Of a stretch of 64,000 nt of DNA, positions 170 through 57,291 are shown one piece after another (positions within the stretch are counted from its first letter, which is position 1; every line of letters begins with the position of its first letter). The position numbers and the translations under genes are program-made. Source of the stretch: Eledone cirrhosa (Eukaryota); NCBI GenBank assembly GCA_964016885.1, contig CAXHJY010000413.1, forward strand, positions 1-64,000. The letters run 5' to 3'. The notes beneath the pieces were generated by a model, which saw only the letters and a list, made by a program, of their open reading frames with translations, did not search any database and had not been told where the DNA came from.

Positions 170-2560
170 TAAATTGATAAAGAATTGATTATTAGCTGTA
201 TACTTTGTGAAATGTTTTATGGAATTTATGCAAGCAGATAGAAAACAAGTCAGTTCGTCTATTTATTATAGAATCTAGATTAGAGATAATGGTAAATTTT
301 TCATTTAGGCAGAGATTGCAGATTTGTATGAAGACGCAGAAGAAACCTTCTTCCAAAAGATGGTATATTTAATGTTTTTGTCTTTCAAGGACCATATGAG
401 TTCTGAGAGAGCCGTGTTGGTTCTTTTAAGTTTGTATTTAAATGATGAATGATGATTAAAAGAGGTGGAAGTGGAGCCAAAATAGGTGAAGGAATTGGTG
501 TTAGTTATAACTTTACATTCATAAATTAAGTTTTTATCAAGACAATGGTTGTTGAGAGGACATTTATTTTTAAATAGGGCAATTGCAATTGAAATTAGAG
601 AGATTATTAATGAGTGACCTAGTGTTATCTATAGAAGGAATTGGATTGGAGAAGTTGTTTGCGATAGGAATAATAGTTTCTTGATTTAGAGTTGGATTAT
701 GAACATTTAGCGAAGTTGTGTTTGACGTTGTATTTGGGTTTGTACGAAAATTAGCCTAGGGTTTATAATGACGTCGGGAAGTACTATTACTATTATTATG
801 AAATTCAGTGTTGGAAGGAAGAGATTTAGTATTTAGTATTTTATTGTTGTGTTTAGAGATAATGTTGGAAATATTGGAGGATGTAGAATAAGAAAATTTT
901 ATGGTGTGTTTGTTAAATATTTTACTATAGATATGCGAGGGAGGGGAAGCATTTATTTAAGGCACTAAAGAATAATTTAGGAATATTGTTATTAATAGAG
1001 ATGGAGAAAGGAGCATTATACCAGATTATGTTTTTGTATCTAGGTCTTTTATTAAAGTTATTGGAATGATCATGATTAATTATTCTACTGTAAGTTCTTC
1101 TAGAATTTGTTTCTTTACTATATTTGATTTTATCAGGATAGCCGGCTTTAGAAAGTGCGTTATTATAGTAATTGGACGTTAGCATCAAAGATGTTTTTAT
1201 TAGAAGATAGGTTAGATATTCTTTTTCCAATATTACTAGCTATAGCATTCTTGATATTAGTAGGATGGTTAGATTTAAAGTTAACATAATTTAGGTTCTC
1301 ATTGTTTTTATGGTAAAGGGTAATATAGGCCAGTGTCAAGATTAAGAGATACATCCAAGAAATTAGCTAGTTTGATACTGTTATCAAATTCAATTTTTAA
1401 GGTTTATGTTGGTTAAAGAGATTACGTATATTGTTTCTTAATAATATTAAGGTTAACAATATTGCAATTTAAGATAGTAAAGAGTCCATCGTCACGATAA
1501 ATTCCACCGCGAAGTTGAGGAATTTTCCGACTCAAAGAGTTCAAAATAAAGATACCAATTAAATCAGTCAATTGGGATGAATCGGATGCTCCCATTGTGA
1601 TGTCGAAGTTGTTAGAGGTATCGGCTCTGGTCCAATATTCGTTGTTGAACTCTAGGATGGTTTTACGTGCGGTGAGAATGATGTGAAGTTCATCTGTGGT
1701 GATGTCAGAATATTTAAGTGCGAAAGATAGAGCATTATTGAGAAGTGAAGGCGAAATGGAGGAATAGTAGCTGGCAATATCAAATTGAATAAATTTTAGT
1801 TTGTTTTTATTATTCAATTTGTTGAACCAGCCAATCACTTCAGAAGTACCAAACCATAAATTTAGGTTCAAAGAAGAGCAATTAGAACGAACCTGTGGGA
1901 TAATTCTATCCAAGATGGCTTTACTAACAACCCCAGATCAGATTTAGAGGGGGCGATTAATCTAACAGGTAGTTCAGTGCGAAAATTGTTTTTGTGATCC
2001 TTGAGATTTATCCTCGGAGTTCTTGGGAGGAATGGTTCGGTCTTTTTTTCAATGCCAAGTTTTGACATAATCTCAGAGGCTTCAAGGTTTATGTATTCTA
2101 AATTTTCATGGTTGGTTTTACGATATTTTTTCCTAAGTTCCTTTAGGATAAGGTTGTTATATAATTATCCTTGGAAATACCATATAAGTTATTGGTTTTG
2201 TCAGAGTGGACTAAAACATTTTTTTGAGGAATTTAGGTTAGAAATTGTGTTCTTGAGATTTACAAGGTGCTCTTGTCCTTTGTAAGGGTATCTCTTGAAT
2301 TTAAGATTTTTTATTATTTTAGTTAACTCTTCCTCGAATTGCACTAGATTTTTGTTGGAAGGAGGATTTTCTTCTAGAATTAAATAGATGATCGAGGAAG
2401 TTATGTTCTTTGGTATAGAAGTTCCCTTTTAGGCGCTGGTCATAGAAATAGGCTGTCCATCTAACGAAAGGAGTCAGTTTTTTTCAATTAGAAGTTTGGT
2501 GAATTCAGATTTACCAGGTATAGGAATGTCTTTTAGTTGAATTGGTTATGTTGTAATAAT
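170..2560 (-). mobile_element. Penelope-like retroelement, degraded (RT + GIY-YIG endonuclease), frameshifted
   Basis: ORF pieces 1868..2068, 1422..1913, 1163..1354 and 925..1230 give PLE RT motifs (IQFDIASYYSSI, DITMGA, IYRDDG, SNHP, IIWYNAPFS). Manual translation at about 400-570 gives KCPLNNHCL...IYECKV...YFGST (GIY-YIG region). Boundaries are approximate. Confidence 0.85.
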
Positions 2561-2766
2561 CCATGTTGTAGAAGAAGAAGTAAAAGACCATCAAAAGGTA
2601 TCCAATATGAGAGTAAGCGCTCAACCGTTAAGGAGCAAGTTAATGTAGGAGGTGAGTTTTATTGTAGTACAATAAAGCAATGCAGATATCGGATAAGAAG
2701 CACTCTACAGTTTGTAGGACTGGAGTATACATAATATATAAGAACAGAAGATGGTTAAAGGAGTTC

Positions 2767-2852
2767 CATGTATTTTATTATGCGCATTTCAAAAACAAAC
2801 ATCATCATGCAATAATATTTGTGTTTTCATCAGATAAAACAGGAGGGACATG
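2767..2852 (-). ncRNA. Type I hammerhead ribozyme
   Basis: Reverse complement reads TTTTAT-CTGATGA-stem II-GAAA-TGCGCA-TA-ATAAAA. Confidence 0.8.
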
Positions 2853-3043
2853 ATATGAAGGCTAAAAAACACTTGTGGATTAGTGCAGTTTTTAAAATCA
2901 ACATATGAGAAGTAGTTTTAGATTGATGTGTGATATTGGGAAAAATATTTTATTTAGAGGGGGAGGGGGGGGGAAGGATGAAAAAAAGAGGAGGAGATGA
3001 GAAGTGAAGAATATTCATTCCGCAATTCATTATTTTCTTCTCT

Positions 3044-3233
3044 AAAGGGTGGTGGATTGGCAGTATCGGTAGAGGGTCGGACGCCATGCTTTCCAGCATA
3101 GTTACGTCCCCTTTACGATCTGAGTTCAAATCCCGCCGAGGTTGACTTTGCCTTTCATCCTTACGGGGTCGATAAAATAAAGTACCAGTAATGCACTGGG
3201 TAATTGCTGGCCTTGTGCCTAAAGTAGAAAACA
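3044..3233 (+). mobile_element. tRNA-derived SINE with 15 bp target-site duplication
   Basis: A-box-like TGGCAGTATCGG and B-box GAGTTCAAATCC, followed by a conserved body GACTTTGCCTTTCATCCTTACGGGGTCGATAAA. ATTATTTTCTTCTCT occurs at both 3029-3043 and 3234-3248. Confidence 0.85.
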
Positions 3234-3628
3234 ATTATTTTCTTCTCTCTATCATCAAACTCATTATTCTCAATACATATTAACTCCCTCTCCTTCTTCG
3301 TTAATTTTCAAATTCTTTTAATTTATACATTATCTTCCAACGGTTTTCAACCTCTCTATGTAAAACAATATATCTTTCTCAGTTATAAAAACTATCTCTC
3401 TCTCTCTCATATCACCCATCTCTCCTCCTATCTCATCCTTCCTCATTATATTCCTCCCTCTCCACCTTCACTCTCATCTCCTCCTCTTTTTTTCTCATCC
3501 TTTCCACCCCCCCCCCCCCTCTAAATAAAATATTTTTCCCAATATCACAACACACATCAATCTAAAACTACTTCTCATATGTTGATTTAAAACTGCACTA
3601 TCCACAAGTGTTTTTTTAGCCTTCATAT

Positions 3629-3716
3629 CATGTCCTCCTGTTTTATCTGATGAAAACACACAAATATTATTGCAATGATGATGTTTGTTTTTGAAATGCG
3701 CATAATAAAATACATG
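3629..3716 (+). ncRNA. Type I hammerhead ribozyme
   Basis: TTTTAT (3641) CTGATGA, stem II, GAAA, palindromic stem III TGCGCA, TA cleavage site, ATAAAA. Outer CATGT/ACATG extends stem I. Confidence 0.82.
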
Positions 3717-3741
3717 GAACTCCTTTAACCATCTTCTGTTC

Positions 3742-4635
<894 letters not shown>

Positions 4636-5307
4636 TAATAATGGCTGCGCGTTGCAAATGGTGGGGCATATGAAAAAGTAAGTCCCTTCATCAGTGACCC
4701 TCCAACCGTCCCAGGCATTTCATCGCTTAAGGGCCATATGCCTCAGGTTGGTGCGAACAACGGCTAAAAAAAGTCGTTGGGACACGTAAACAAAGGGGAC
4801 GCCAGGGTAACAAACAAAAAGGTTTAAGCAACGGAAAGTGAGAAGAAATAGACAAGTCCCAGATCTCTATGAATATAAACTCGGTGAAATCGTGAACAAG
4901 AGACAAAAGACCATCAAACCTGGTTGAAATGTGAGCAAGGAAAGAATTTTGCACAAGTCTAACGGGGGGGGGGGGGGGGGAGAGAAGAAGAAGAAGAAGA
5001 AGAAGAAGAAGAAGAAGATAAAGGGGTCTGGTCTACGAATTCGGTAAACATAAGTTTTGTGAAGTCGCAGACGAAAGAGAGAGAGAGAGAAAAAAATTTC
5101 CATACCAGCTTGGTCAAGACCGCGCGAGAAAAGAATTACACACAGGTCAAACTTGAAGGAGGAGGAGGAAAGAGGAGGAGGAGAGGTAGTGACAGAGAAT
5201 GAGTGAGTGAAAGTTGAGGAGGAGGCTAACAGAGAGAGAGACTGCTAGAAAGGGTAAAAGGTAACGAACAGACGAGTGGCAGCAGAAGAAAAATTATGTG
5301 TAAATAT

Positions 5308-5497
5308 GATAATAATAATTGTTTCTACTTTTGGCACAAGGCCAGCAATTATCCCAGTACATTACTGGTACTTTATTTTATCGACCCCGTAAGGATGAAA
5401 GGCAAAGTTGACCTCGGCGGGATTTGAACTCAGAATAGAAAGGGCCGTAACTCTATGCGTCAAAGCATGACGTCCGACCCTCTACCGATACTGCCAA
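5308..5497 (-). mobile_element. tRNA-derived SINE, same family as 3044-3233
   Basis: Reverse complement of the 3044-3233 element, with a (TTA)n tail. Confidence 0.85.
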
Positions 5498-5524
5498 ATA
5501 ATGGCTGCGCGTTGCAAATGGTGG

Positions 5525-5619
<95 letters not shown>

Positions 5620-5623
5620 GTAT

Positions 5624-8600
5624 GTATGGTTGATTGTAGACTTGTTCTATATGTGACGGTATTTTAACGATAGTTATAGCTCTGATTCATCTGAATTATT
5701 GAGCCCTCTGCCGCTCATATCGAATTTCGTTTTTCGTGAACTCGTGCGCCGATTTTTCGATACTCGATCTTTCTAATATATTTAGCTCTGGACATAGCTA
5801 TCCACCAGTTAATTTTATTGCTCATTTTTTGTCGATTCTATTGAGTGATGAATAGCTTTTGTTTTATTTTAACATGTCTATTGAGCACTCTAATTCGATA
5901 TGTGTATTTCCACATTCACTCGAATTGTTTTCGCGGATATAGGGGTCATCTCCCTTGTCTAATGCCATGTGCGTTTTTCACCGCTAGTTGACTCCTTTGC
6001 CGCCAGGAAAAAACTCGTTGACAACGTAAACTCCGTTCCACTTATTCTAGTAGGCTTTTATATTTATATGTGAGCTGATAGAGTACTGTCTAAGGATTTA
6101 CAGAAACCCATGAAGCTAGATTTAACACCTTTCTAGTGGGTCCGGGTATGATTTTACATTCATTTAAATTATTGACGTATTGTTTTATTGATATTTTTTA
6201 TTTGTTTGGCCCGAATCTTCCTTTATCGATTTTAAATCGTATGGTTGATTGTAGACTTGTTCTATATGTGACGGTATTTTAACGATAGTTATAGCTCTGA
6301 TTCATCTGAATTATTGAGCCCTCTGCCGCTCATATCGAATTTCGTTTTTCGTGAACTCGTGCGCCGATTTTTCGATACTCGATCTTTCTAATATATTTAG
6401 CTCTGGACATAGCTATCCACCAGTTAATTTTATTGCTCATTTTTTGTCGATTCTATTGAGTGATGAATAGCTTTTGTTTTATTTTAACATGTCTATTGAG
6501 CACTCTAATTCGATATGTGTATTTCCACATTCACTCGAATTGTTTTCGCGGATATAGGGGTCATCTCCCTTGTCTAATGCCATGTGCGTTTTTCACCGCT
6601 AGTTGACTCCTTTGCCGCCAGGAAAAAACTCGTTGACAACGTAAACTCCGTTCCACTTATTCTAGTAGGCTTTTATATTTATATGTGAGCTGATAGAGTA
6701 CTGTCTAAGGATTTACAGAAACCCATGAAGCTAGATTTAACACCTTTCTAGTGGGTCCGGGTATGATTTTACATTCATTTAAATTATTGACGTATTGTTT
6801 TATTGATATTTTTTATTTGTTTGGCCCGAATCTTCCTTTATCGATTTTAAATCGTATGGTTGATTGTAGACTTGTTCTATATGTGACGGTATTTTAACGA
6901 TAGTTATAGCTCTGATTCATCTGAATTATTGAGCCCTCTGCCGCTCATATCGAATTTCGTTTTTCGTGAACTCGTGCGCCGATTTTTCGATACTCGATCT
7001 TTCTAATATATTTAGCTCTGGACATAGCTATCCACCAGTTAATTTTATTGCTCATTTTTTGTCGATTCTATTGAGTGATGAATAGCTTTTGTTTTATTTT
7101 AACATGTCTATTGAGCACTCTAATTCGATATGTGTATTTCCACATTCACTCGAATTGTTTTCGCGGATATAGGGGTCATCTCCCTTGTCTAATGCCATGT
7201 GCGTTTTTCACCGCTAGTTGACTCCTTTGCCGCCAGGAAAAAACTCGTTGACAACGTAAACTCCGTTCCACTTATTCTAGTAGGCTTTTATATTTATATG
7301 TGAGCTGATAGAGTACTGTCTAAGGATTTACAGAAACCCATGAAGCTAGATTTAACACCTTTCTAGTGGGTCCGGGTATGATTTTACATTCATTTAAATT
7401 ATTGACGTATTGTTTTATTGATATTTTTTATTTGTTTGGCCCGAATCTTCCTTTATCGATTTTAAATCGTATGGTTGATTGTAGACTTGTTCTATATGTG
7501 ACGGTATTTTAACGATAGTTATAGCTCTGATTCATCTGAATTATTGAGCCCTCTGCCGCTCATATCGAATTTCGTTTTTCGTGAACTCGTGCGCCGATTT
7601 TTCGATACTCGATCTTTCTAATATATTTAGCTCTGGACATAGCTATCCACCAGTTAATTTTATTGCTCATTTTTTGTCGATTCTATTGAGTGATGAATAG
7701 CTTTTGTTTTATTTTAACATGTCTATTGAGCACTCTAATTCGATATGTGTATTTCCACATTCACTCGAATTGTTTTCGCGGATATAGGGGTCATCTCCCT
7801 TGTCTAATGCCATGTGCGTTTTTCACCGCTAGTTGACTCCTTTGCCGCCAGGAAAAAACTCGTTGACAACGTAAACTCCGTTCCACTTATTCTAGTAGGC
7901 TTTTATATTTATATGTGAGCTGATAGAGTACTGTCTAAGGATTTACAGAAACCCATGAAGCTAGATTTAACACCTTTCTAGTGGGTCCGGGTATGATTTT
8001 ACATTCATTTAAATTATTGACGTATTGTTTTATTGATATTTTTTATTTGTTTGGCCCGAATCTTCCTTTATCGATTTTAAATCGTATGGTTGATTGTAGA
8101 CTTGTTCTATATGTGACGGTATTTTAACGATAGTTATAGCTCTGATTCATCTGAATTATTGAGCCCTCTGCCGCTCATATCGAATTTCGTTTTTCGTGAA
8201 CTCGTGCGCCGATTTTTCGATACTCGATCTTTCTAATATATTTAGCTCTGGACATAGCTATCCACCAGTTAATTTTATTGCTCATTTTTTGTCGATTCTA
8301 TTGAGTGATGAATAGCTTTTGTTTTATTTTAACATGTCTATTGAGCACTCTAATTCGATATGTGTATTTCCACATTCACTCGAATTGTTTTCGCGGATAT
8401 AGGGGTCATCTCCCTTGTCTAATGCCATGTGCGTTTTTCACCGCTAGTTGACTCCTTTGCCGCCAGGAAAAAACTCGTTGACAACGTAAACTCCGTTCCA
8501 CTTATTCTAGTAGGCTTTTATATTTATATGTGAGCTGATAGAGTACTGTCTAAGGATTTACAGAAACCCATGAAGCTAGATTTAACACCTTTCTAGTGGG

Positions 8601-11600
8601 TCCGGGTATGATTTTACATTCATTTAAATTATTGACGTATTGTTTTATTGATATTTTTTATTTGTTTGGCCCGAATCTTCCTTTATCGATTTTAAATCGT
8701 ATGGTTGATTGTAGACTTGTTCTATATGTGACGGTATTTTAACGATAGTTATAGCTCTGATTCATCTGAATTATTGAGCCCTCTGCCGCTCATATCGAAT
8801 TTCGTTTTTCGTGAACTCGTGCGCCGATTTTTCGATACTCGATCTTTCTAATATATTTAGCTCTGGACATAGCTATCCACCAGTTAATTTTATTGCTCAT
8901 TTTTTGTCGATTCTATTGAGTGATGAATAGCTTTTGTTTTATTTTAACATGTCTATTGAGCACTCTAATTCGATATGTGTATTTCCACATTCACTCGAAT
9001 TGTTTTCGCGGATATAGGGGTCATCTCCCTTGTCTAATGCCATGTGCGTTTTTCACCGCTAGTTGACTCCTTTGCCGCCAGGAAAAAACTCGTTGACAAC
9101 GTAAACTCCGTTCCACTTATTCTAGTAGGCTTTTATATTTATATGTGAGCTGATAGAGTACTGTCTAAGGATTTACAGAAACCCATGAAGCTAGATTTAA
9201 CACCTTTCTAGTGGGTCCGGGTATGATTTTACATTCATTTAAATTATTGACGTATTGTTTTATTGATATTTTTTATTTGTTTGGCCCGAATCTTCCTTTA
9301 TCGATTTTAAATCGTATGGTTGATTGTAGACTTGTTCTATATGTGACGGTATTTTAACGATAGTTATAGCTCTGATTCATCTGAATTATTGAGCCCTCTG
9401 CCGCTCATATCGAATTTCGTTTTTCGTGAACTCGTGCGCCGATTTTTCGATACTCGATCTTTCTAATATATTTAGCTCTGGACATAGCTATCCACCAGTT
9501 AATTTTATTGCTCATTTTTTGTCGATTCTATTGAGTGATGAATAGCTTTTGTTTTATTTTAACATGTCTATTGAGCACTCTAATTCGATATGTGTATTTC
9601 CACATTCACTCGAATTGTTTTCGCGGATATAGGGGTCATCTCCCTTGTCTAATGCCATGTGCGTTTTTCACCGCTAGTTGACTCCTTTGCCGCCAGGAAA
9701 AAACTCGTTGACAACGTAAACTCCGTTCCACTTATTCTAGTAGGCTTTTATATTTATATGTGAGCTGATAGAGTACTGTCTAAGGATTTACAGAAACCCA
9801 TGAAGCTAGATTTAACACCTTTCTAGTGGGTCCGGGTATGATTTTACATTCATTTAAATTATTGACGTATTGTTTTATTGATATTTTTTATTTGTTTGGC
9901 CCGAATCTTCCTTTATCGATTTTAAATCGTATGGTTGATTGTAGACTTGTTCTATATGTGACGGTATTTTAACGATAGTTATAGCTCTGATTCATCTGAA
10001 TTATTGAGCCCTCTGCCGCTCATATCGAATTTCGTTTTTCGTGAACTCGTGCGCCGATTTTTCGATACTCGATCTTTCTAATATATTTAGCTCTGGACAT
10101 AGCTATCCACCAGTTAATTTTATTGCTCATTTTTTGTCGATTCTATTGAGTGATGAATAGCTTTTGTTTTATTTTAACATGTCTATTGAGCACTCTAATT
10201 CGATATGTGTATTTCCACATTCACTCGAATTGTTTTCGCGGATATAGGGGTCATCTCCCTTGTCTAATGCCATGTGCGTTTTTCACCGCTAGTTGACTCC
10301 TTTGCCGCCAGGAAAAAACTCGTTGACAACGTAAACTCCGTTCCACTTATTCTAGTAGGCTTTTATATTTATATGTGAGCTGATAGAGTACTGTCTAAGG
10401 ATTTACAGAAACCCATGAAGCTAGATTTAACACCTTTCTAGTGGGTCCGGGTATGATTTTACATTCATTTAAATTATTGACGTATTGTTTTATTGATATT
10501 TTTTATTTGTTTGGCCCGAATCTTCCTTTATCGATTTTAAATCGTATGGTTGATTGTAGACTTGTTCTATATGTGACGGTATTTTAACGATAGTTATAGC
10601 TCTGATTCATCTGAATTATTGAGCCCTCTGCCGCTCATATCGAATTTCGTTTTTCGTGAACTCGTGCGCCGATTTTTCGATACTCGATCTTTCTAATATA
10701 TTTAGCTCTGGACATAGCTATCCACCAGTTAATTTTATTGCTCATTTTTTGTCGATTCTATTGAGTGATGAATAGCTTTTGGTTTATTTTAACATGTCTA
10801 TTGAGCACTCTAATTCGATATGTGTATTTCCACATTCACTCGAATTGTTTTCGCGGATATAGGGGTCATCTCCCTTGTCTAATGCCATGTGCGTTTTTCA
10901 CCGCTAGTTGACTCCTTTGCCGCCAGGAAAAAACTCGTTGACAACGTAAACTCCGTTCCACTTATTCTAGTAGGCTTTTATATTTATATGTGAGCTGATA
11001 GAGTACTGTCTAAGGATTTACAGAAACCCATGAAGCTAGATTTAACACCTTTCTAGTGGGTCCGGGTATGATTTTACATTCATTTAAATTATTGACGTAT
11101 TGTTTTATTGATATTTTTTATTTGTTTGGCCCGAATCTTCCTTTATCGATTTTAAATCGTTTGGTTGATTGTAGACTTGTTCTATATGTGACGGTATTTT
11201 AACGATAGTTATAGCTCTGATTCATCTGAATTATTGAGCCCTCTGCCGCTCATATCGAATTTCGTTTTTCGTGAACTCGTGCGCCGATTTTTCGATACTC
11301 GATCTTTCTAATATATTTAGCTCTGGACATAGCTATCCACCAGTTAATTTTATTGCTCATTTTTTGTCGATTCTATTGAGTGATGAATAGCTTTTGTTTT
11401 ATTTTAACATGTCTATTGAGCACTCTAATTCGATATGTGTATTTCCACATTCACTCGAATTGTTTTCGCGGATATAGGGGTCATCTCCCTTGTCTAATGC
11501 CATGTGCGTTTTTCACCGCTAGTTGACTCCTTTGCCGCCAGGAAAAAACTCGTTGACAACGTAAACTCCGTTCCACTTATTCTAGTAGGCTTTTATATTT

Positions 11601-13149
11601 ATATGTGAGCTGATAGAGTACTGTCTAAGGATTTACAGAAACCCATGAAGCTAGATTTAACACCTTTCTAGTGGGTCCGGGTATGATTTTACATTCATTT
11701 AAATTATTGACGTATTGTTTTATTGATATTTTTTATTTGTTTGGCCCGAATCTTCCTTTATCGATTTTAAATCGTATGGTTGATTGTAGACTTGTTCTAT
11801 ATGTGACGGTATTTTAACGATAGTTATAGCTCTGATTCATCTGAATTATTGAGCCCTCTGCCGCTCATATCGAATTTCGTTTTTCGTGAACTCGTGCGCC
11901 GATTTTTCGATACTCGATCTTTCTAATATATTTAGCTCTGGACATAGCTATCCACCAGTTAATTTTATTGCTCATTTTTTGTCGATTCTATTGAGTGATG
12001 AATAGCTTTTGTTTTATTTTAACATGTCTATTGAGCACTCTAATTCGATATGTGTATTTCCACATTCACTCGAATTGTTTTCGCGGATATAGGGGTCATC
12101 TCCCTTGTCTAATGCCATGTGCGTTTTTCACCGCTAGTTGACTCCTTTGCCGCCAGGAAAAAACTCGTTGACAACGTAAACTCCGTTCCACTTATTCTAG
12201 TAGGCTTTTATATTTATATGTGAGCTGATAGAGTACTGTCTAAGGATTTACAGAAACCCATGAAGCTAGATTTAACACCTTTCTAGTGGGTCCGGGTATG
12301 ATTTTACATTCATTTAAATTATTGACGTATTGTTTTATTGATATTTTTTATTTGTTTGGCCCGAATCTTCCTTTATCGATTTTAAATCGTATGGTTGATT
12401 GTAGACTTGTTCTATATGTGACGGTATTTTAACGATAGTTATAGCTCTGATTCATCTGAATTATTGAGCCCTCTGCCGCTCATATCGAATTTCGTTTTTC
12501 GTGAACTCGTGCGCCGATTTTTCGATACTCGATCTTTCTAATATATTTAGCTCTGGACATAGCTATCCACCAGTTAATTTTATTGCTCATTTTTTGTCGA
12601 TTCTATTGAGTGATGAATAGCTTTTGTTTTATTTTAACATGTCTATTGAGCACTCTAATTCGATATGTGTATTTCCACATTCACTCGAATTGTTTTCGCG
12701 GATATAGGGGTCATCTCCCTTGTCTAATGCCATGTGCGTTTTTCACCGCTAGTTGACTCCTTTGCCGCCAGGAAAAAACTCGTTGACAACGTAAACTCCG
12801 TTCCACTTATTCTAGTAGGCTTTTATATTTATATGTGAGCTGATAGAGTATTGTCTAAGGATTTACAGAAACCCATGAAGCTAGATTTAACACCTTTCTA
12901 GTGGGTCCGGGTATGATTTTACATTCATTTAAATTATTGACGTATTGTTTTATTGATATTTTTTATTTGTTTGGCCCGAATCTTCCTTTATCGATTTTAA
13001 ATCGTATGGTTGATTGTAGACTTGTTCTATATGTGACGGTATTTTAACGATAGTTATAGCTCTGATTCATCTGAATTATTGAGCCCTCTGCCGCTCATAT
13101 CGAATTTCGTTTTTCGTGAACTCGTGCGCCGATTTTTCGATACTCGATC

Positions 13150-13160
<11 letters not shown>
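5624..13160 (+). repeat. Tandem array of a 615 bp non-coding unit: 12 full copies plus a ~157 bp partial
   Basis: GTATGGTTGATTGTAGAC recurs at 5624, 6239, 6854 ... 13004. I saw only three substitutions (10782, 11161, 12851). Both ends adjoin TA microsatellite. Strand is inferred. Confidence 0.97.
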
Positions 13161-13218
<58 letters not shown>

Positions 13219-13532
13219 TTGAAAAAAATGAAAACGAAATTTCATTTCTCACTCTTAGTATGGCACTTACTTAAATGTAAGTATGTATGTATACGTACAT
13301 ACATATACGTATACAGACGTACAGTAGCATGCATATATATACATATATATATATATACATATATATACATATATACATACAGGTACACATACATATATGC
13401 ACGCATCAGTTTAGCGGACGTTTATTACAACGCCGCTTTGTTCGTTTGTTTGTCAACAAACCGAACAGCCTGAATTTATGCCATACGGTGTTAAGGCAAC
13501 CACGTCACCTTTTTGTTCAACACTGACACAGG

Positions 13533-13577
13533 AACGATGTACTAGTTTCAAGCTTGTTAGCTATCATCAGCACCGTT
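13533..13577 (-). ncRNA. Type I hammerhead ribozyme, array copy 1
   Basis: Reverse complement: AACGGTG-CTGATGA-T-AGCT-AACA-AGCT-T-GAAA-CTAG-TA-CATCGTT (7 bp stem I, GUA site). Confidence 0.88.
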
Positions 13578-14024
13578 TACCCATCTGCCAGATAGTTGAA
13601 CGTTCGAAAGTATATACTTTCCTTATGAAAATTAACGGCTGAGCAGCCTAATTTGCATATTGAGTGAGTTAAATCGGTCAGGCATACCGAAAACGATAAG
13701 TTGAAAAAAATGAAAACGAAATTTCATTTCTCACTCTTAGTATGGCACTTACTTAAATGTAAGTATGTATGTACACGTACATACATATATGTATACAGAC
13801 GTACAGTAGCATGCATATATATACGCATATATATATATACATATATATACATATATATACACATATGCATACAGGTACACATACATATATGCACGCATCA
13901 GTTTAGCGGACGTTTATTACAACGCCGCTTTGTTCGTTTGTTTGTTAACAAACCGAACAGCCTGAATTTATGCCATACGGTGTTAAGGCAACCACGTCAC
14001 CTTTTTGTTTAACACTGACACAGG

Positions 14025-14069
14025 AACGATGTACTAGTTTCAAGCTTGTTAGCTATCATCAGCACCGTT
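14025..14069 (-). ncRNA. Type I hammerhead ribozyme, array copy 2
   Basis: Identical to copy 1. Confidence 0.88.
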
Positions 14070-14502
14070 TACCCATCTGCCAGATAGTCGAACGTTCGAA
14101 AGTATATACTTTCCTTATGAAAATTAACGGCTGAGCAGCCTAATTTGCATATTGAGTGAGTTAAATCGGTCAGGCATACCGAAAACGATAAGTTGAAAAA
14201 AATGAAAACGAAATTTCATTTCTCACTCTTAGTATGGCACTTACTTAAATGTAAGTATGTATGCATACGTACATACACACATGTATACAGACGTACAGTA
14301 GCATGCATATATATATACATATATATACATACATACACATACATACATACAGGTACACATACATATATGCACGCATCAGTTTAGCGGACGTTTATTACAA
14401 CGCCGCTTTGATCGTTTGTTTGTCAACAAACCGAACAGCCTGAATTTATGCCATACGGTGTTAAGGCAACCACGTCACCTTTTTGTTCAACACTGACACA
14501 GG

Positions 14503-14547
14503 AACGATGTACTAGTTTCAAGCTTGTTAGCTATCATCAGCACCGTT
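14503..14547 (-). ncRNA. Type I hammerhead ribozyme, array copy 3
   Basis: Identical to copy 1. Confidence 0.88.
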
Positions 14548-14984
14548 TACCCATCTGCCAGATAGTCGAACGTTCGAAAGTATATACTTTCCTTATGAAA
14601 ATTAACGGCTGAGCAGCCTAATTTGCATATTGAGTGAGTTAAATCGGTCAGGCATACCGAAAACGATAAGTTGAAAAAAATGAAAACGAAATTTCATTTC
14701 TCACTCTTAGTATGGCACTTACTTAAATGTAAGTATGTATGTATACGTACATACATATACGTATACAGACGTACAGTAGCATGCATATATATACATATAT
14801 ATATATATACATATATATACATATATACATACAGGTACACATACATATATGCACGCATCAGTTTAGCGGACGTTTATTACAACGCCGCTTTGTTCGTTTG
14901 TTTGTCAACAAACCGAACAGCCTGAATTTATGCCATACGGTGTTAAGGCAACCACGTCACCTTTTTGTTCAACACTGACACAGG

Positions 14985-15029
14985 AACGATGTACTAGTTT
15001 CAAGCTTGTTAGCTATCATCAGCACCGTT
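14985..15029 (-). ncRNA. Type I hammerhead ribozyme, array copy 4
   Basis: Identical to copy 1. Confidence 0.88.
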
Positions 15030-15259
15030 TACCCATCTGCCAGATAGTTGAACGTTCGAAAGTATATACTTTCCTTATGAAAATTAACGGCTGAGCAGCC
15101 TAATTTGCATATTGAGTGAGTTAAATCGGTCAGGCATACCGAAAACGATAAATTGAAAAAAATGAAAACGAAATTTCATTTCTCACTCTTAGTATGGCAC
15201 TTACTTAAATGTAAGTATGTATGTACACGTACATACATATATGTATACAGACTTTCAAT

Positions 15260-18200
15260 TCAGGATTTTGGCACCATGGCCCATTCGAGAAGAGAATTAC
15301 TGTTTGCGGAGACATATCCGGGTGTGGGTGGTTTGTCCGGGATCACTTGGAGGAATTTGTCCAAAGACTTCTTGAATTTTGTGTGGTGAGTTTCTGTTTT
15401 GACGTGTCCTGGTGTGATGTTGAAGCGAGCAGGGCCAATTGAGGTGAAATAATTGTGCCGTATTGTTGTTATGAGTTGCGATTTAGATTTTTGTATGGGA
15501 CGGATAGCACGGGGCCCAAGCCTTGGGTGTATTTTGAAGGCGATGCCAACATCATTTGGGCAGTGATGATGGAACATTTTCCACATCATGCAGATAATAT
15601 AACGCTCACGGCGACGTTGGAGTGAGTAAAGTTTCAGCTTTTCTAGTCGACCCCAGTAGTCAAGGTCTGACATGCCATCTATCTTTTTCGTGATTGCCCT
15701 TTGAGGAGCTTCAAGTTTCATGATACTTTGTTTCGTGTGGGGAGATCACAGTGGACAACAGTATTCAAGGTGTGGTCGGGCAAAAGTAGAGAAGAGAAGG
15801 ATAATGGTGTGGGAATCTCTCGACTGGAAGGTTCTGAGGATCGAGGAACACATTCTGCGGGCCATGTCAACTTTGCTGCTTATATGCGTGGCCCAGCTTA
15901 TGTTGCTGTCCACGGTTACTCCCAAGTCTCTGATGTTGTTAGATGCCACGAGAGTTTCCCCGGAGGGAAGGGAGTACGGGAGTTTCAGAGCATCCTCTTT
16001 TCCAAAGTGGATCAGTTCGAATTTGTCTTCGTTCAGTAACATGTTGTTCTTTTCCGCCCATTGGGTAACAGCCAGTAGGTCTGACTGAAGGCTTATCCGG
16101 TCATCCACGCCATTGATGACCTTTTGGAGCTTGGAATCATCAGCGAAAATTTTAATGTTTCTGTGTTTGATGATGTCAGTGATGTCATTAATATAGATGA
16201 TGAAGAGAAGTGGGCCCAACACAGTGCCTTGTGGGACCCCACTACTGACTTTGGCTGGGCTGGATTTGACTCCTTCAACTACAACATGTTGGGTTCTGTT
16301 TGACAGGAAGCTCTTGATCCACTGCAGCAGCTTTCCACTGACACCAATATTGGACAGTTTTCTCAGTAGAATGTTGTGATCAACCCTGTCAAAGGCCTTG
16401 CTGAAATAAAGGTAGATAACATCAGTGTTGGAACCCTCTCCCAAGGCTCTCAAAATGTCATCAAAGTGATGCAGTAGCTGCGTCAGGCAATCCCTTCCAT
16501 TACGGAATCCATGCTGGTTGGAGTTCAGCATATTGTTACTCTCAAGGAAGTGGGTCATTCGCGATCTCACCACTCTCTCAAATACCTTAATGATATGAGA
16601 GGTGAGTGAGATTGGACGGTAATTCACGGCAAGGGATTTGTTTCCTTTTTTGAAAACTGGGACAACAGACTGGGATAGAAGGTTTTCTGGCACATATCCA
16701 GCATCCAGTGAGTTCCGCCACAGATTGGCAAGAGGAGATGCAAGTTGGTGTTGACACGCCTTCAAGACACAAGCAGGGAACCTATCGGGACCTACTGCTG
16801 AATTATGCTTGATTTCCTTTATTGCCGCCAAGACATCAGGGGCGCCAAACGTTATGTCCGATAAGGTGTAATGGGGAGTAAGATCGCCGATACAGCCCAG
16901 ATCGGCCATATCAGGATTGCTGAAAACAGAGCAGTATTGTTTCTGCAGTATCTCACCCATGGTTTTAGCATTGTCTTGAAGAGTGCCATTTTCATCAATT
17001 AGAGGGCCAACAGTAGAGCCAGTGATTTTGTGTTTTTTTGCAAATGAAAAGAACACTTTGGGATTGAGTTTGATCTTCTCAATGGCCCAGGCCTCTTCAG
17101 CTCTTCTCTGATTGTTGATGAGAGACATCATGTTGTTTTGGAGGTTATGTTTTTTAATCTCTAGTGATGAAATGGCAGTCAAGTTGATGTGTTGCTGCTG
17201 ACAGTATTTCAGCTTGTTGATTTTTTGTTCGTTCTCTTAATTTTCCTGATGAGCGTTTTTCTATTTCTAGGGATTCTGCTCTTAGATTTGTTTATAGTTC
17301 TTAATGGGGTGTGTTTAGCACATATGTTTGTAACAGTGTCCACAAATGTCTGCCAGGACTTTTTGATGTTAGTGGGTGTATGAGTGTGCGTGAAGGACCA
17401 GTCGACATGTGCAAGATCATGACTGATCGCTTCCCAGTTTGCATTGTGGAAATCCATAGCGTCAAACGGATGGACAGGAGAGATGACTTTGGGTTTGTAT
17501 ATTGGACGGTGGAATCTCAGATCACAGAGAACCATGTCATGATCAGAGAGTAGAGTTTTCTCCACTGCAATATTGTGGATATTGTCAGTGTGATTGCTGA
17601 AAATTAAGTCTAGGACGTTTTTGTGGCACCTCGTTGGTTCGAGCACCAGTTGGGATAGGAAGAAATCATCCATGAAGTCAAGAAGCGATTCCACTGCTTC
17701 CCTGTCAGAGGTTGAGGCAGAAGAACCTGGTGGCAGGGTGTTTGTGGACCAGTCAACTCCGGGGAGGTTGAAGTCCCCCATCATTAAGATGTTGTCAGGG
17801 TGACACTCTTGGATGAAACACTTTATGCTGTTGAGGCATTCCTTGAAGCATGGTACAGGCGTTTGGGGTGGCCTATAGAGCCCAACTACTATTAGGTTGT
17901 TGGTTTGACTGAATACAGTGACTGCTTCGCAGTATCCATTAGTGAATATGTTCATAGCCTCTGTTGAGAAAGAATTATGGACATAAATGGCAGTCCCGCC
18001 CTTTCTTCTGCCAGCGCGATCAGCACGGATGGCTTTGAAATTTTTCACTTTCACCTCGGCTTCCAAGTGGAGGTTACTGAGATGGGTTTCAGTGAGGACG
18101 AAGAAAGGGATGTGGTTTGGATGGACATCAATCCAGTCCTCCAGGAATTTGATCTTCCATTTTTGAGTATTGGTGGAAGGGCTGATGCCTTGGGCGTTAA

Positions 18201-18279
18201 GCAAAAATGTAGAGGCGAGAGTGGATGGTTTTAATTGTTTTGGTGTGTTGTTAATTTGTTTGTTTGTTAATGGCAGCAA
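15260..18279 (-). pseudogene. LINE ORF2 (APE endonuclease + reverse transcriptase) in three frameshifted pieces
   Basis: APE: LTETHL, GGTAIYV, YRPP, GDFNLP, LDLIFS, SDHD. RT: NYRPISLTS, FSKAFDRVDH, GVPQGTVLGPLLF, IFADDSKL. CR1-type C-terminus: LYSLQRRRER. Confidence 0.9.
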
Positions 18280-18299
18280 TGGGAGTTTGTGCAGTGGGG

Positions 18300-19200
18300 T
18301 GATAGTGGAGGGTGGTGCTGGGTGATAGCTCGAATGTTTTTTTCCAGTTCTTTTGCCAGATTCATTATGGCTAAAAAAGAGGAAGAAGTTTCCTGTTTAG
18401 AAGACTGTTGGTGACTGTGGTAGTGGTTATTTTTATGTAGGTTATGGTTTTTGTTTTTGCTTTTATTTTTAATTTTATTAATTTTATTTTAATTTGTCCG
18501 ACGGGTCCCCGGGAGATGGGTAAAGGGACAATCCCGGTCTAAACACAATCTGTCTCGCAGGGAAAAGCGGCAGATTTGTGGATTCCTTGTTTGAGTTATT
18601 GGTGGTTGTGTTGGTGTTAAATTAGAGTATGTATTATGGTGGTGGCTGTTTGTGGGGATAGACCGTTTTGTCCTAGGTAAATGGGTGAATTTGCAGCCAC
18701 TATCCGTACATATTCTATAGCGTAGAGAGTAGCGGCAAATGATGGGGTTTCAAGTGGGTGTGTATGTGGGTGTGTGTGTTGTGAGAGGTGTAGATGATGG
18801 TTTGAGTAGGATTTGACGACCTTTGTGGACTGTGGGAGGGAGAGTTCTTGTACTGGTATTAGAAGGTAAATTCCTTGAGATAGCAGTAGGAAAAGATGTG
18901 GTAGTAGTAGTAGTAGTAGTAGTAGGCAGAGAAGATGTTGGCAGTGGTGATGATTGGACTGCTGGGCCAGAGAAAGGATGTGGTGTTTCCTGCTGTGAGA
19001 CAGAGGCTACTGGGAGGTCAATAGTTTCATTTAGTAGATCGGCCATTGTTGATGAATCAAGGAGTGGTTCATACTGTTGTTGTTGTTGTCGTTGTTGTTG
19101 TTGCTGTTGTTGATGTTGTTGTTGCTGTTGTTGTTGTAGCTGTTGTTGTTGTTGCCGTTGTAGCTGCTGTTGTTGTTGTTGCTGCTGCTGGACAGCATCC
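18300..19200 (-). pseudogene. LINE ORF1 remnant with two CX8CX4CX3H fingers and a polyQ/polyT region
   Basis: Manual translation gives ICRYSLRYRICTDSGCKFTHL (about 18680-18742) and ICRFSLRDRLCLDRDCPFTHL (about 18512-18575). Confidence 0.65.
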
Positions 19201-19254: not shown

Positions 19255-19793
<539 letters not shown>

Positions 19794-20056
19794 ATTATCT
19801 CCAAATCGTTTGTCGAGCAATATTGGCCATGACTGCTGCTATGGTAGTAGGCAGGCCGCTGTCTTATTAACAACTCGCTTTCCACTGATTGACCTCGATG
19901 TGATTGATTCTTTTTGAATTTGCCACAGACGTAGAGGCAGTGATTTTCTCAATGGTTAGGAATTCAGTCCACACTTCGCTATTTCCTCTCCACTGAATTA
20001 TTTTTTTAATAAGTTTCCAGAGTCCTCGCTATGCCTGTAAACTTACACGAAAATAG

Positions 20057-20138
20057 ACTTTCCTGACGACGGATTGCTTTTCAATATATTCTTCGGAAAA
20101 TATATTTACTCCATTCCAGAAACTAATTAGTTGGAAGT
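20057..20138 (+). ncRNA. Type I hammerhead ribozyme
   Basis: ACTTTC-CTGACGA-C-GGA...TCC-A-GAAA-CTAATTAG-TT-GGAAGT, with palindromic stem III and a GUU site. Confidence 0.75.
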
Positions 20139-20196
20139 GATATTTTAGTAAGTAAGTTAATTTTATAATTTTCTTATTTTACGTCTCTTATATTAT

Positions 20197-25990
<5,794 letters not shown>

Positions 25991-26194
25991 AGAAAGTGAG
26001 GTTTTTTTTACAAAATGAAAAATAACCGAGGTGTCCTACACGAGTGAAAGTATAAAGAAAAAGAGATGAAATCGAAAATGCAACTGGAGTCTTATTTTTA
26101 AAAAAAATATATATATTTATTTGGTTCCTTTAACGGTTTCGTAGTTCTTCTGCTTTTCAAAAGGTGAGTTGAGATGGAGGGTCTGTAGTTTTTC

Positions 26195-27500
26195 TCACAT
26201 CTGTGAGACGGAGGTACCTGGTTTTTTTACGGAGGTACCTGGTCTTTCTACTATCTTAATATTGAGTTTATGTTTATTTAAGGCCCTTCTAAAATTGTAA
26301 GCTAAATCACCTCTAGGGGTAGTATCGATGAACATTACACTCTGGTATTTATTGCTATCATACCATGAGTTTATTCTATTAGCCTTGTTCCTAGTTCTTT
26401 CTATTCTATTCCAAAATTTGCTCCTATACAAGCGGCAGGTCCCATTTATGTCATTATTTACCATTTTTTCCCATTTGGTTCTGGCTCCTCTATACACTCT
26501 GATTTTATCTCTCTGATTGTAGCCAGAGAACTGCATACGGTGGATGAAGTGTTGTATGTGTCTCTCTAGTTCTTCGGGGTTGCACATGCGGGACACGTTT
26601 CTCATCACCCGTACCAAATCCGCAATCAGTATGTTGATTTTGGTATGGTCCGAAACGGCCGAGTTTCGGTGGATCAGATGTTTGGAAGTCATGGGTTTGG
26701 CATAATGGGAATGGAGGATTTGTTTTTTGTTATTAATGGTATCGATTACCTGTACTAGACACAGAGCTCTGGCTAGAAATATAGTGTATAGCATAAGATG
26801 TACTGAAGGACAATGTAGAGACAAAAATATAGTGTACATAGGTGAGACAGCCCGTAGTGTAGGGGAACGGATAAATGAACACTGGCGAGACCTTCAAGAT
26901 AGTAAAGAATCATCTGTACTCTGCCAACATGCTAAAATAGAACACAAGGGTAAATTAGAGAACATAGAAATAAAAATACAGTAGAATCTACACACAGAAA
27001 AGACGCAATGTTTAGACAAATTACAGAGGCAATAAACATAAAAGAATTACAACCAAAATTAAATAGAAAATATGAGTGGAACAGCAACATCACAACTTAC
27101 AATTAAGGACAAAATGAAAACACACACACACATAGAACAAACAACCAACCAGTAACATGTAAATAAACAAATAAATAAATGAACATAAACACACACAGAC
27201 ACCCGGATGTGGCGCATGCGCAGACTGAGCACACAACACACACACAGAAACAAAATGGCGTAGGACAGAACAAAGGAGAGGCACATAAACAAAGAAAGGA
27301 ATCCCCAGTCACTGAAGAGGTCACAGAGTGTATGACGAAAGAACTATGACAATATATAAACAACTATCTGGTTGTGGAACCAACCAACCAACCAGAAATT
27401 TATAAATTTGTAAATTTATTATAAATTTATTATAATAAATTGAAGTGAAAGCAACTGGTGCGTGTGTTTCTTATTGGCAACATGACCCTCCCAAAGTATA
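26195..27500. mobile_element. Penelope-like element with inverted 5' part (RT C-terminal region on minus, GIY-YIG and pLTR on plus)
   Basis: The minus part 26210-26743 is nearly identical to 39097-39462. The plus part reads NIVYSIRC...YIGETARSVGERINEH. Confidence 0.85.
27308..27350 (+). ncRNA. Minimal type I hammerhead ribozyme
   Basis: GTCA-CTGAAGA-G-GTCA-loop-TGAC-GAAA-GAAC-TA-TGAC, downstream of the GIY-YIG region. Confidence 0.78.
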
Positions 27501-27663: not shown

Positions 27664-27696
<33 letters not shown>

Positions 27697-27699
27697 CAT

Positions 27700-28109
27700 T
27701 GGGAGAGATGACCCCTTAGCCTTTGTAAAGGCAGAATTCTAGGAGAAGGAAAACTCTGATATAACACCTGCAACCCTGATGGTATCCAATGATGTTGACT
27801 TGTTCTTCTTTTTGGTAAATATCATCTTGGTTAAGAGAGTGGGACTGGCTTTGTGCAGTGCCTTTGCTCACTATAAAAGCTTCACGGCACAGGCATTGCT
27901 TTATATCTGGAGATCTCTCTGCACTTGTCGTCACATGGAACCATGGGCCCAGCACTATGTGTCAATAATTGTCACAGGTGTAGTGTTTGTACCAGAGTTT
28001 TCAAGTAGCTAGCTGGACTAAAATGTCACACTCGTTCAGCGCATCGGTAGGAGTTCTCCTACATGGATATAAAGTAGTGGCCGTACTCGAAAACGAGTTG
28101 GCAGCCACT
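27700..28109. mobile_element. Non-coding interspersed element 'X', partial
   Basis: Nearly identical to 56836-57244 and 61096-61506. Flanked by TA tracts. Confidence 0.8.
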
Positions 28110-28193
28110 ATATATATATACATATACATATATATATATACATATATACATATATATATACATATATATATACATATATAAATATACATATAA

Positions 28194-30086: not shown

Positions 30087-31538
30087 TTATACTTCTCTTA
30101 GGTCAGTGTTGTTTGTTTGGGTGTTGTTGTTGTTCCACTCATTCTTTCTGTTTAGCTTTGGTCTTCTAATTTCTATTTCACTGGCCTCTCTGATTTGCCT
30201 ATCTGCTGGGTCATTCCTATGTTTAGATATTATTCTAATTTCTATGTTGTCTATGTTACCGTCATGTTGTTGTCTAGCATGTTCGTATAGTACTGACCCG
30301 TTTTTTCGTCCTTTTAGTTCCCCCCAGTGTTGGTCTATCCTTTCACCTATGCTACGAGCTGTTTCGCCTATGTATGTTGTTGTCATGTTTCTGCAAGTAC
30401 CCTCTGTACATCTTATGCTATAGACTACGTTTTTAGTTTTACAGTTTATCCGGGGGTTCACCTTACATATGATACATTTCCTATTGGTACAGTGGGTTTT
30501 CTTAAAAGGGTAGGTTTTGCTGATCAGGGATTTTATGGTGGTTCCTGGCTTTTCTACCACCTTTATTTTTAAGTGGGTCTTTCTCAGGGCCTTTCTACAC
30601 TGGTTAGCTAATTTCCCTCCAGGGGTGGCGTCCACAAACATGACACTCTGATATCTCTGGTTGTCGTACCATGATGTGGCCTTCCCTATCTTATGTCTAG
30701 CCCTATCTAAGCTATTCCATGATTTGCTTCTGTATAATGGGCAAATTCCTTTCATGTCCAGTTCTATGAGGGTCTTATACTTTTCCATGGCTCCTTCGTA
30801 TACTCTGACTCTGTCTCTTTGGTTGTAGCCAGAGAACTGCATGCGGTTGATGAAGTGTTGGATGTGTCTTTCCATTTCTGTTGGGTCGCACATGCTGGAC
30901 ACATTCTTCATCACTCTTACCAAATCTGCGATCAGAATATTAAACTTAGCATTACTGCACATTGCTGAGTTTTTGAGTATCAGGTATTTGGAGGCCATGG
31001 GTTTAGCATAGTGTGAGTGGAGAATTTGGGCTCTCTCGTCTATAGTGTTAATCCAGAGTTCTGTGTCTAATACAGGTAGTCTATTGTTAGGGTGTTTGGA
31101 AGGGAAGTCGATAGTTACAGTTATACTCTGGTGTATGGAATTAGCTATCTGCTGGATGCTTTCCATCGTGCTACGTTCTAAATCAAACTTGTTAGTGCTC
31201 TCTAGTGGGGGTGTTCTTATAACTATATTGATATCGTCTACATAACGAGAGTACATGATGAGGTCTATGGAGCTTTCATTAAGGAGATCTTTAAGTCTCC
31301 TTTCCCACCATACCATGAAAAGGTTGGCAACATCACCAGCTATGCTGACGCCGATGGCTGCTCCCTCATTTTGGGTGTAGATTTTCTCATTGAACTTAAA
31401 TATGTGGCCCTTTAGGGTAGTTTTGATACTAGCCCCTATTGCATGTGCGACCATTTTTCTTACCTGATCATTGTTTTGGGGGGTCCGTATAGCTTTGGTC
31501 CACCCAATCCACCTTCCCATGGGAGTCTTTTTTGCCAT
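30087..31538 (-). CDS. Penelope-like RT + GIY-YIG ORF (5'-truncated, uninterrupted 483 aa)
   Basis: GAAIGVSIAGDVANLFM, YSRYVDD, LPVLD, CTNRKCIIC, VVYSIRC, YIGETARS, LNRKNEW. Confidence 0.9.
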   Translation of the reverse strand: MAKKTPMGRWIGWTKAIRTPQNNDQVRKMVAHAIGASIKTTLKGHIFKFNEKIYTQNEGAAIGVSIAGDVANLFMVWWERRLKDLLNESSIDLIMYSRYVDDINIVIRTPPLESTNKFDLERSTMESIQQIANSIHQSITVTIDFPSKHPNNRLPVLDTELWINTIDERAQILHSHYAKPMASKYLILKNSAMCSNAKFNILIADLVRVMKNVSSMCDPTEMERHIQHFINRMQFSGYNQRDRVRVYEGAMEKYKTLIELDMKGICPLYRSKSWNSLDRARHKIGKATSWYDNQRYQSVMFVDATPGGKLANQCRKALRKTHLKIKVVEKPGTTIKSLISKTYPFKKTHCTNRKCIICKVNPRINCKTKNVVYSIRCTEGTCRNMTTTYIGETARSIGERIDQHWGELKGRKNGSVLYEHARQQHDGNIDNIEIRIISKHRNDPADRQIREASEIEIRRPKLNRKNEWNNNNTQTNNTDLREV

Positions 31539-31715
31539 TGAGGTTATGGTGGGGGGTCTACCTCTTATAGGTCTACTAGGGCAGAAACATCTAAGGTCAT
31601 GGCTGTCTAGGTAAGATGGGTAATATCTATCCTACGAGGTTACCCTTTAATAAAAGAGTTTGCATACCACAGCAAATAGATGACGAGACAGAGGCACATT
31701 TCACCATAGCTAGAA

Positions 31716-32045: not shown

Positions 32046-32562
32046 TTTTTGGTCACTGAACTCGGGAATGTCACGACAGAAGTTTGTGGAAGTTACACAA
32101 ATATTTTAGTATATTTTACCAGAGCAATCCTTATTTATATTTTACATTTTACATTTACTTACATCTCAATATAACATGGCTAAATTTCAAATTTTGCAAA
32201 GAGCAGAAAACGGACAAATGAACTAGATACATCTCACTGTCCCCCGCCACCACAATAACGCCTACACTCTCTCCCCACCATCACATGTCATTACCCTATC
32301 TAGACTAAAGTCATCGACCTGTTGTCAAACTCTCTACTCTGTGTTGAATGTGTATATATATATATTTATGTAGGAGGTGAGTTTTATTGTACAATAAAGC
32401 AATGCAGATATCGGATAAGAAGAACTCTACAGTTTGTAGGACTGGAGTATACATAATATATAAGATCAAAAGATGGTTAAAAGAGTTCCATGTATTTTAT
32501 ATTTGATATGTTAATTTAAAACTGCACTATTCACAAGTGTTTTTTAACCTTCATATCATGTC

Positions 32563-35455: not shown

Positions 35456-35492
35456 TTAATATATCTATATATCTATATATACATAACGAATA

Positions 35493-35688: not shown

Positions 35689-35732
<44 letters not shown>

Positions 35733-57244: not shown

Positions 57245-57246
57245 TG

Positions 57247-57291
<45 letters not shown>

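Follow-up and report, generated by a model that had tools for sequence, protein, structure and literature searches.

A near-invariant 615 bp tandem array in a (TA)n tract of Eledone cirrhosa: probably a single recent insertion mobilised by a Penelope-like element

Introduction

How does a non-coding unit of 615 bp come to stand in more than twelve head-to-tail copies, almost without a difference between them, inside a simple (TA)n repeat? The question is raised by a 7.5 kb array in a 64,000 nt stretch of the Eledone cirrhosa genome (assembly GCA_964016885.1, contig CAXHJY010000413.1, positions 1 to 64,000 of the forward strand), the whole of which is referred to here as the window. At this locus a hammerhead-bearing and a hammerhead-less array lie tail to tail on one TA tract, and how Penelope-like elements (PLEs) make tandem insertions and whether hammerhead ribozymes are needed are both open questions (PMC8557442; PMC11167929). 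A first-pass annotation of the window had proposed a very recent, single-event concatemer made by retrotransposition. We argue that a 615 nt non-coding passenger probably inserted here once, and recently, through mobilisation in trans by a PLE that targets (TA)n, most likely a member of the Hydra clade.

Results

Structure, variation and age of the array

5624..13161, + (inferred sense; 3′ end at right): head-to-tail array, strand taken from motif orientation and fold z-scores
5766..5788, +: unit junction, first of 12 identical copies, with a pyrimidine-rich end, a short TA-like run and the start of hairpin 1
10782..12851, +: three private substitutions, all in the right third of the array

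The array has a period of 615 bp and spans 5624-13161, equivalent to 12.26 units (12 x 615 bp plus 158 bp) arranged head-to-tail, which confirms the twelve copies and a partial one described earlier. The unit is non-coding, 36% GC and without a long terminal repeat (LTR). Exactly three substitutions relative to the majority unit were found, as previously noted, at 10782, 11161 and 12851 (copies 9, 10 and 12 respectively), each private to its copy, with no indels, giving a rate of 4.0e-4 per site over 7538 bp (95% confidence interval 0.8e-4 to 1.2e-3), and all 12 internal unit junctions were identical across 23 nt. These identical junctions, together with three unshared substitutions in 7538 bp, fit one copying event. 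Old satellite DNA, for which diverged monomers, shared variants and indels are expected, was rejected on the three private substitutions and absence of indels in 12 copies, and the recent origin claimed in the first-pass annotation is supported. Using an octopus calibration in which a distance of 0.09 corresponds to 25 million years (PMC13282606), we infer that the array is no older than about 0.1 million years, and all three substitutions could be copying errors made during insertion.

The longest stop-to-stop frame in the unit comprises 62 codons, its ATG-started portion being shorter, and hence the earlier statement that no open reading frame (ORF) reaches 60 amino acids (aa) holds for ATG-started ORFs but not for stop-to-stop frames. 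None of 13 Hydra-type proteins matched the array by tblastn. No Rfam family reached its gathering threshold across the window, an E-value scan of the unit returned two chance matches at E 5.3 and no ribozyme at E up to 10, and a promoter and terminator scan of bacterial type remained at chance level. A tRNA-derived short interspersed nuclear element (SINE) was considered and rejected, there being no tRNA or Rfam match in the unit.

The distribution of the variants bears on two other explanations, since copies 1-8 (4.9 kb) are without any difference and clustering of all three variants in the right third has a one-sided P of about 0.03 under uniform placement. A PLE-derived monomer or dimer may have inserted and then been amplified in place by unequal exchange or slippage, a satellite born from a pseudo-LTR (pLTR), which would account for eight invariant copies with all variants to their right, would retain the Hydra-type motifs described below, and is a route proposed for retrozyme arrays (bioRxiv 10.64898/2026.07.22.740005). 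Stepwise growth tends to copy variants, however, whilst none of the three is common to several copies and indels are absent, although three variants make this a weak test; we consider amplification in place unlikely. Alternatively, the repeat may be real but its copy number or near-identity a product of collapse or consensus smoothing during assembly, as eight copies without a difference in a region rich in long TA tracts might suggest. Three private variants and clean, different junctions at the two ends argue against such an effect, as do the neighbouring 482 bp array, which keeps diverged monomers so that repeats here are not generally smoothed, and an array length (7.5 kb) that falls within the span of long reads. 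An assembly effect therefore appears quite improbable.

Boundaries and insertion target

5528..5623, no strand: left (TA)n tract, G-interrupted and ending GTAT, adjoining the 5′-truncated array end
13154..13216, no strand: right (TA)n tract, common to the 3′ end of an opposite-facing 482 bp retrozyme array

A single insertion mobilised by a PLE is consistent with both ends of the array. It runs into (TA)n as reported earlier, with TA tracts on either side (5528-5623 and 13154-13216). The right end falls precisely at the unit's TA-like junction, the boundary being blurred across 13154-13161 where the unit's own ATATAT merges with the tract, whilst the left end is arbitrary and lies mid-unit; together these give the partial-tandem, 5′-truncated layout of PLEs, so that at this one locus the tandem is truncated on the 5′ side and has a defined junction on the 3′ side. 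GTAT at the end of the left tract possibly provides 4 nt of microhomology with the truncated array end, and the right tract would be the priming site. The target, (TA)n, is that of the Hydra and Naiad families, and almost all Hydra families insert into it (PMC8557442 section 11). Whole-unit alignments in eight region/strand combinations gave at best a 25 nt match, in 4634-5527 (1/100 shuffles).

A perfect 35 bp direct repeat (4637-4671 and 5497-5531, +) bounds an 860 bp piece that has a TA tract on either side and contains a SINE-like copy (5314-5497); this piece may be a further insertion of the monomer-plus-partial kind. By eye, the left end of the unit resembles a published Naiad 3′ end, and the 3′ end of the octopus element Naiad_Obim appears to carry hammerhead blocks in the non-circular SGC order of PMC10085705 (PMC8557442 supplement), although Naiads are reported without canonical hammerheads.

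The ends also bear on a DNA-level rolling circle, be it of Helitron type, an extrachromosomal circle or a mobile satellite, that entered a fragile TA tract. Helitrons start with 5′ TC, end in 3′ CTRR preceded at about 12 nt by a GC-rich hairpin, and insert between A and T. The right end of the array permits the reading CTAA plus T, in keeping with this end and site, but no terminal hairpin beyond chance was found (z +0.5; 142/200 shuffles fold as well), the unit restarts with TA rather than TC, and the left end lies mid-unit; a Helitron was rejected on the hairpin and the missing TC start. De novo insertions of a mobile satellite, up to more than 21 kb long, have been observed in Chlamydomonas (PMC9977147). 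Replitrons are listed with plants, algae and protists as their hosts. A Hydra-type hairpin 3 nt after the junction would nevertheless be left unexplained by any of these DNA routes, which we regard as improbable.

A bulged hairpin at the unit junction

5785..5891, +: hairpin copy 1, 3 nt after the junction, one per unit
5679..5709, +: hairpin copy 2, also present once in each unit (last at 13059); the junction follows 106 nt downstream

The TA-like junction of the unit is immediately followed by a bulged hairpin with the layout RCYC-stem-2 nt-GRGY-RCT. Copy 1 has a 4 bp outer stem, a 7 bp inner stem, a 2 nt bulge, a long inserted loop and an ACTCT tail, whilst copy 2 pairs with a probability of 0.98 in the circular fold of the unit. 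A descriptor that included the array's own tail variant gave two matches in the unit and none in 2000 shuffles, and without this variant one match in the unit against 5/5000 shuffles; a third, relaxed match at 6013 folds differently and was excluded from the count. In the rest of the window the descriptor without the tail variant gave four matches where the null mean was 0.25. Two of these (2726 and 28486) lie in two Hydra pLTR copies, just after the junction and about 160 nt upstream of the ORF start, and the other two (35563 and 62058) in a duplicated block beside Hydra fragments. The stem letters differ between families yet still pair, pairing being required by the descriptor. The Hydra pLTR copies in the window have two kinds of end, one at the junction (3743) and the other some 90 nt further on, past the hairpin (28404).

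Published Hydra consensi (PMC8557442 supplement) show the same arrangement, namely a 4 bp stem RCYC/GRGY, an inner stem, a 2 nt bulge on the 3′ side and then ACTCT or a near variant. By eye it was found in 4/6 consensi (Hydra-2_Amil, Hydra-1_Ajap, where it occurs twice, Hydra-2_Ajap, and Hydra-1_Crog as a compensated variant) and was not noticed at the ends of Hydra-1_Amil and Hydra-1_Obim. The 9-mer GAGCACTCT occurs five times in the 584,131 characters of this supplement, three of them at Hydra ends; other short words of the unit were absent from the element ends there, and short unit words were absent from the supplement of PMC13282606 (about 5,400 characters of methods and tables). The literature covered, with the Hydra section of PMC8557442 but not subscription articles, notes in Repbase, supplements to preprints or that of PMC7229834, yielded no description of the hairpin. 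Hairpin orientation points to + as the sense strand, in agreement with the fold z-scores (+ strand -2.5, - strand -0.9).

TA-abutting termini elsewhere in the window

25985..25997, -: end (at 25991) of an unrelated element whose last 7 bases before (TA)n are common with the array

The first-pass annotation had linked the array to Penelope through a shared terminus, with an upstream ACTCGTG, occurring in reverse at 25985-26046 next to a Penelope fragment. Here the match comprises the seven bases CTTTCTA, for which 0.004 occurrences are expected among 18 other TA-abutting termini, and the 6-base form CTTTCT also ends an element at 23302 (2/18 seen, 0.016 expected). Homology does not extend further, since the 150 nt upstream of 25991 align with the array end no better than shuffles do (100/300 align as well), and ACTCGTG is accordingly no sign of homology. 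Controls for this alignment, comprising five pairs, gave one strong result (0/300) and two weak ones (6 and 11 of 300). The Penelope fragment (26195-26984) is present with a GIY-YIG match, but about 200 nt of other sequence separate it from the terminus and it has no match to Hydra-type proteins. Hydra-type proteins do match the fragment at 21794-22120, upstream of 23302, and CTTTCT(A) thus amounts to a short motif at element ends, with closer ties to Hydra-type elements than to the Penelope fragment beside it. Thus the proposed link to Penelope survives through the junction hairpin and the CTTTCT end at 23302, and not through an extended shared terminus.

The region 21794-23302 (+) as a whole consists of a Hydra-type endonuclease fragment and a 3′ region with hammerhead cores at 22240 and 23151, with its CTTTCT end before (TA)n.

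Hammerhead and fold tests of the unit

5714..5745, +: possible relic of a Hydra-type hammerhead (copies up to 13094); the junction follows 68 nt downstream
6090..6142, +: second hammerhead-like stretch with a G5->A core change, 6 bp stem III, GUC triplet and no stem I
13214..15252, -: 482 bp array, a retrozyme by structure, with a minimal type I hammerhead in 4/4 full units; internal positive control

An intact type I hammerhead is the defining feature of non-LTR retrozymes (PMC7229834; bioRxiv 10.64898/2026.07.22.740005). In the 615 bp unit no intact hammerhead was found with a type I descriptor or with all six block orders (after PMC10085705) at up to one core change, whilst the same scans recovered the four hammerheads of the neighbouring array (13570, 14062, 14540 and 15022) and three in Hydra pLTRs. 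Since this defining feature is missing, the unit is not a retrozyme. The stretch at 5714-5745, which has a core with two changes, an intact 4 bp stem II and neither stem III nor stem I, may be a decayed hammerhead; its pattern, chosen post hoc, occurred anywhere in 30/1000 shuffles and at the same position in 4/1000. A stretch like that at 6090-6142 occurred in 19/500 shuffles and it is probably due to chance or inactive.

A highly self-paired circular RNA, expressed in vivo, is a further feature of non-LTR retrozymes. The circular fold of the + strand was more stable than all shuffles (z -2.5, 0/40 as stable) with 60% of bases paired; the neighbouring 482 bp retrozyme gave z -9.5, a value probably inflated by an internal microsatellite. 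The missing ribozyme and modest fold lend no positive support to a circular template.

Might the unit still be a true retrozyme that self-cleaves through an unrecognised or trans-assembled ribozyme and then circularises? The two hammerhead-like stretches (5714-5745 and 6090-6142), a + strand more stable than its shuffles (0/40) and the canonical retrozyme adjoining it would fit such a scheme. Against it stand the absence of hammerheads in any block order with up to one core change and of any Rfam ribozyme at E up to 10, and the G5 change in 6090-6142, of a kind that abolishes cleavage (PMC10085705). A hidden ribozyme is, in our view, very improbable.

Neighbouring elements

305..3758, -: broken Hydra-clade PLE with reverse transcriptase (RT) and GIY-YIG pieces, inverted pLTRs, hammerheads at 2833 and 3647 and a hairpin at 2726

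PLE-type insertions lie nested in TA tracts throughout the left half of the window. One of them, at 305-3758, was assigned to the Hydra clade by its by-eye likeness to Hydra proteins (PMC8557442 supplement), its RW-A and DKT motifs and 13 relatives of 305-884 aa; its hammerheads are canonical, and it is the in-window model of the junction layout. In the 482 bp array, for which the Rfam model Hammerhead_HH9 scores 18.5 bits, below its gathering score, the monomers have diverged, but units 1 and 4 differ at only 1/587 bases within a 1452 bp higher-order repeat, so that a trimer was the unit of copying or of duplication. At its far end the array adjoins a long interspersed nuclear element with RT and endonuclease (15260-18396). 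At 25253-25299 (+) the last 45 bp of the 482 bp unit are fused to the end of a palindromic insert also seen at 19350-20200, inside a 5.8 kb TA-rich tract.

Pieces of roughly 220 bp without an ORF, each with a long palindrome and a Hydra-type hairpin, lie beside Hydra RT/endonuclease fragments at 35480-35690 and 61988-62180 (-), enclosed in 2 kb blocks (35493-37547 and 61988-64000) that are 97% identical. A second PLE family, putatively Neptune-like by its Cys-rich linker, is found at 30087-31631 (-), 26195-27500 and 38544-39548; (TA)n likewise follows its 3′ ends at 27500 and 29575, and the copy at 26 kb has an internal inversion. Three copies (94-97% identical) of an element of roughly 440 bp, ending in TA or ATGT repeats, lie at 27664-28137, 56833-57271 and 61059-61523. 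An open frame of 800 codons at 48687-51089 (-) encodes pacifastin and VWC-type repeats, and about 800 bp of this frame and its flank are duplicated, inverted, at 32562-33364.

Discussion

A passenger copied by a Hydra-type PLE

On structure and target the array appears to be a non-autonomous PLE, and it behaves as a non-autonomous PLE or retrozyme multimer would, minus the retrozyme identity. Several findings from other systems favour this reading: in vitro, a PLE protein in purified form nicks AT-rich DNA and begins reverse transcription at an internal position of its RNA, hammerhead mutants being inserted no less well than wild type (PMC11167929); Chlamydomonas has non-autonomous PLEs that insert head-to-tail in multiple copies (PMC8557442; PMC9940879); and recently active PLE families are present in Octopus vulgaris (PMC13282606). 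In the sequence of events that we propose, the + strand would be transcribed as a continuous template, a PLE protein would bind the bulged hairpin, and its GIY-YIG endonuclease would nick the (TA)n tract. Reverse transcription would then begin internally, at the TA-like junction that immediately precedes the hairpin on its 5′ side, and copy about 12.3 units uninterrupted, stopping at 5624, where short microhomology of a few nucleotides would join the product.

The exact junctions argue for a template copied continuously rather than for jumps from end to end, and they fit a circle as well as a read-through multimer. Granting retrotransposition, read-through RNA from a young tandem donor and a 615 nt circle made without a ribozyme of its own are, in our judgement, equally credible templates, neither reaching an even chance, whilst repeated re-priming on terminally redundant RNA seems the less likely course. 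Of the concatemer origin first proposed, recency and PLE-type retrotransposition into (TA)n hold up, whereas rolling-circle reverse transcription gains no support from a unit without a hammerhead and with a modest fold (z -2.5).

A number of observations weigh against this interpretation. At the locus, a target-site duplication is unreadable within (TA)n, and the right-side clustering of variants could stem from local duplication at a later time or from a consensus that smoothed copies 1-8. No second copy of the unit occurs in the window and no active partner was recognised there, the Hydra element at 305-3758 being broken and old; a six-frame tblastn of the unit against the window gave a single match at E 0.52, and the last 150 nt of the array showed no significant similarity to any of 12 other TA-abutting termini. 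Canonical hammerheads, described as universal in autonomous Hydra elements (PMC8557442), have no intact counterpart in the unit. As for the hairpin, copy 1 has a pairing probability of only 0.3 when the entire unit is folded as a circle, and a covariance model built from the two in-window families missed it with its long loop and scored copy 2 at 11 bits (E 2.1), below five unrelated matches; inspection of the published consensi covered a few hundred bases at the ends, by eye and by short-word search.

The hairpin may be a signal recognised by the copying enzyme, and it is a short, mutable and testable candidate start signal. A bolder and rather doubtful proposal is that it serves as a clade-wide RNA start signal for Hydra-type RTs, such that an RNA with the hairpin but no ribozyme would be copied over and over, either as a circle or through re-priming of the telomerase kind, and so give rise in a single step to perfect arrays of several kilobases. 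If true, animals would possess a ribozyme-free route from RNA to instant satellite that hammerhead-based retrozyme screens have missed; should the hairpin prove not to act as a signal, the locus would be no more than an ordinary young repeat associated with PLEs.

Comparison with known systems

Chlamys PLEs such as MRC1 (PMC8557442; PMC9940879) resemble the array in their lack of an ORF, their multicopy head-to-tail insertions with a partial terminal repeat, their microsatellite target and, in most Chlamys elements, the absence of a canonical hammerhead (PMC8557442). They belong, however, to a green-algal clade, insert into (C)n or (CA)n and have 3′ similarity to an autonomous partner (PMC8557442), whilst the array lies in an animal-type genome and in (TA)n, and carries Hydra-type signals, and no alignable partner was found for it. 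With non-LTR retrozymes (PMC7229834) it shares non-coding tandem units of low GC content (36% in the array), present as dimers to multimers and associated with PLEs, and 615 bp falls within their unit range of 51-972 bp (bioRxiv 10.64898/2026.07.22.740005); unlike them it has no intact type I hammerhead, and its self-pairing is much weaker than that of the neighbouring 482 bp retrozyme. The mobile satellite MSAT-11 of Chlamydomonas likewise forms a long tandem array as one insertion, but is described without features of transposable elements, whereas the 615 bp unit has PLE-type junction signals (PMC9977147).

Compared with Hydra-clade PLEs, the array lacks an RT or GIY-YIG ORF and an intact hammerhead and comprises 12 full units rather than a partial tandem. 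It shares with them the (TA)n target, the pyrimidine-rich end with a TA-like junction and the bulged hairpin that follows at once, and its possible hammerhead relic lies at about the usual distance from the junction (PMC8557442). Finally, two start sites have been reported for an anole PLE, similar to the Hydra pLTR copies of the window, which end at the junction or about 90 nt beyond it.

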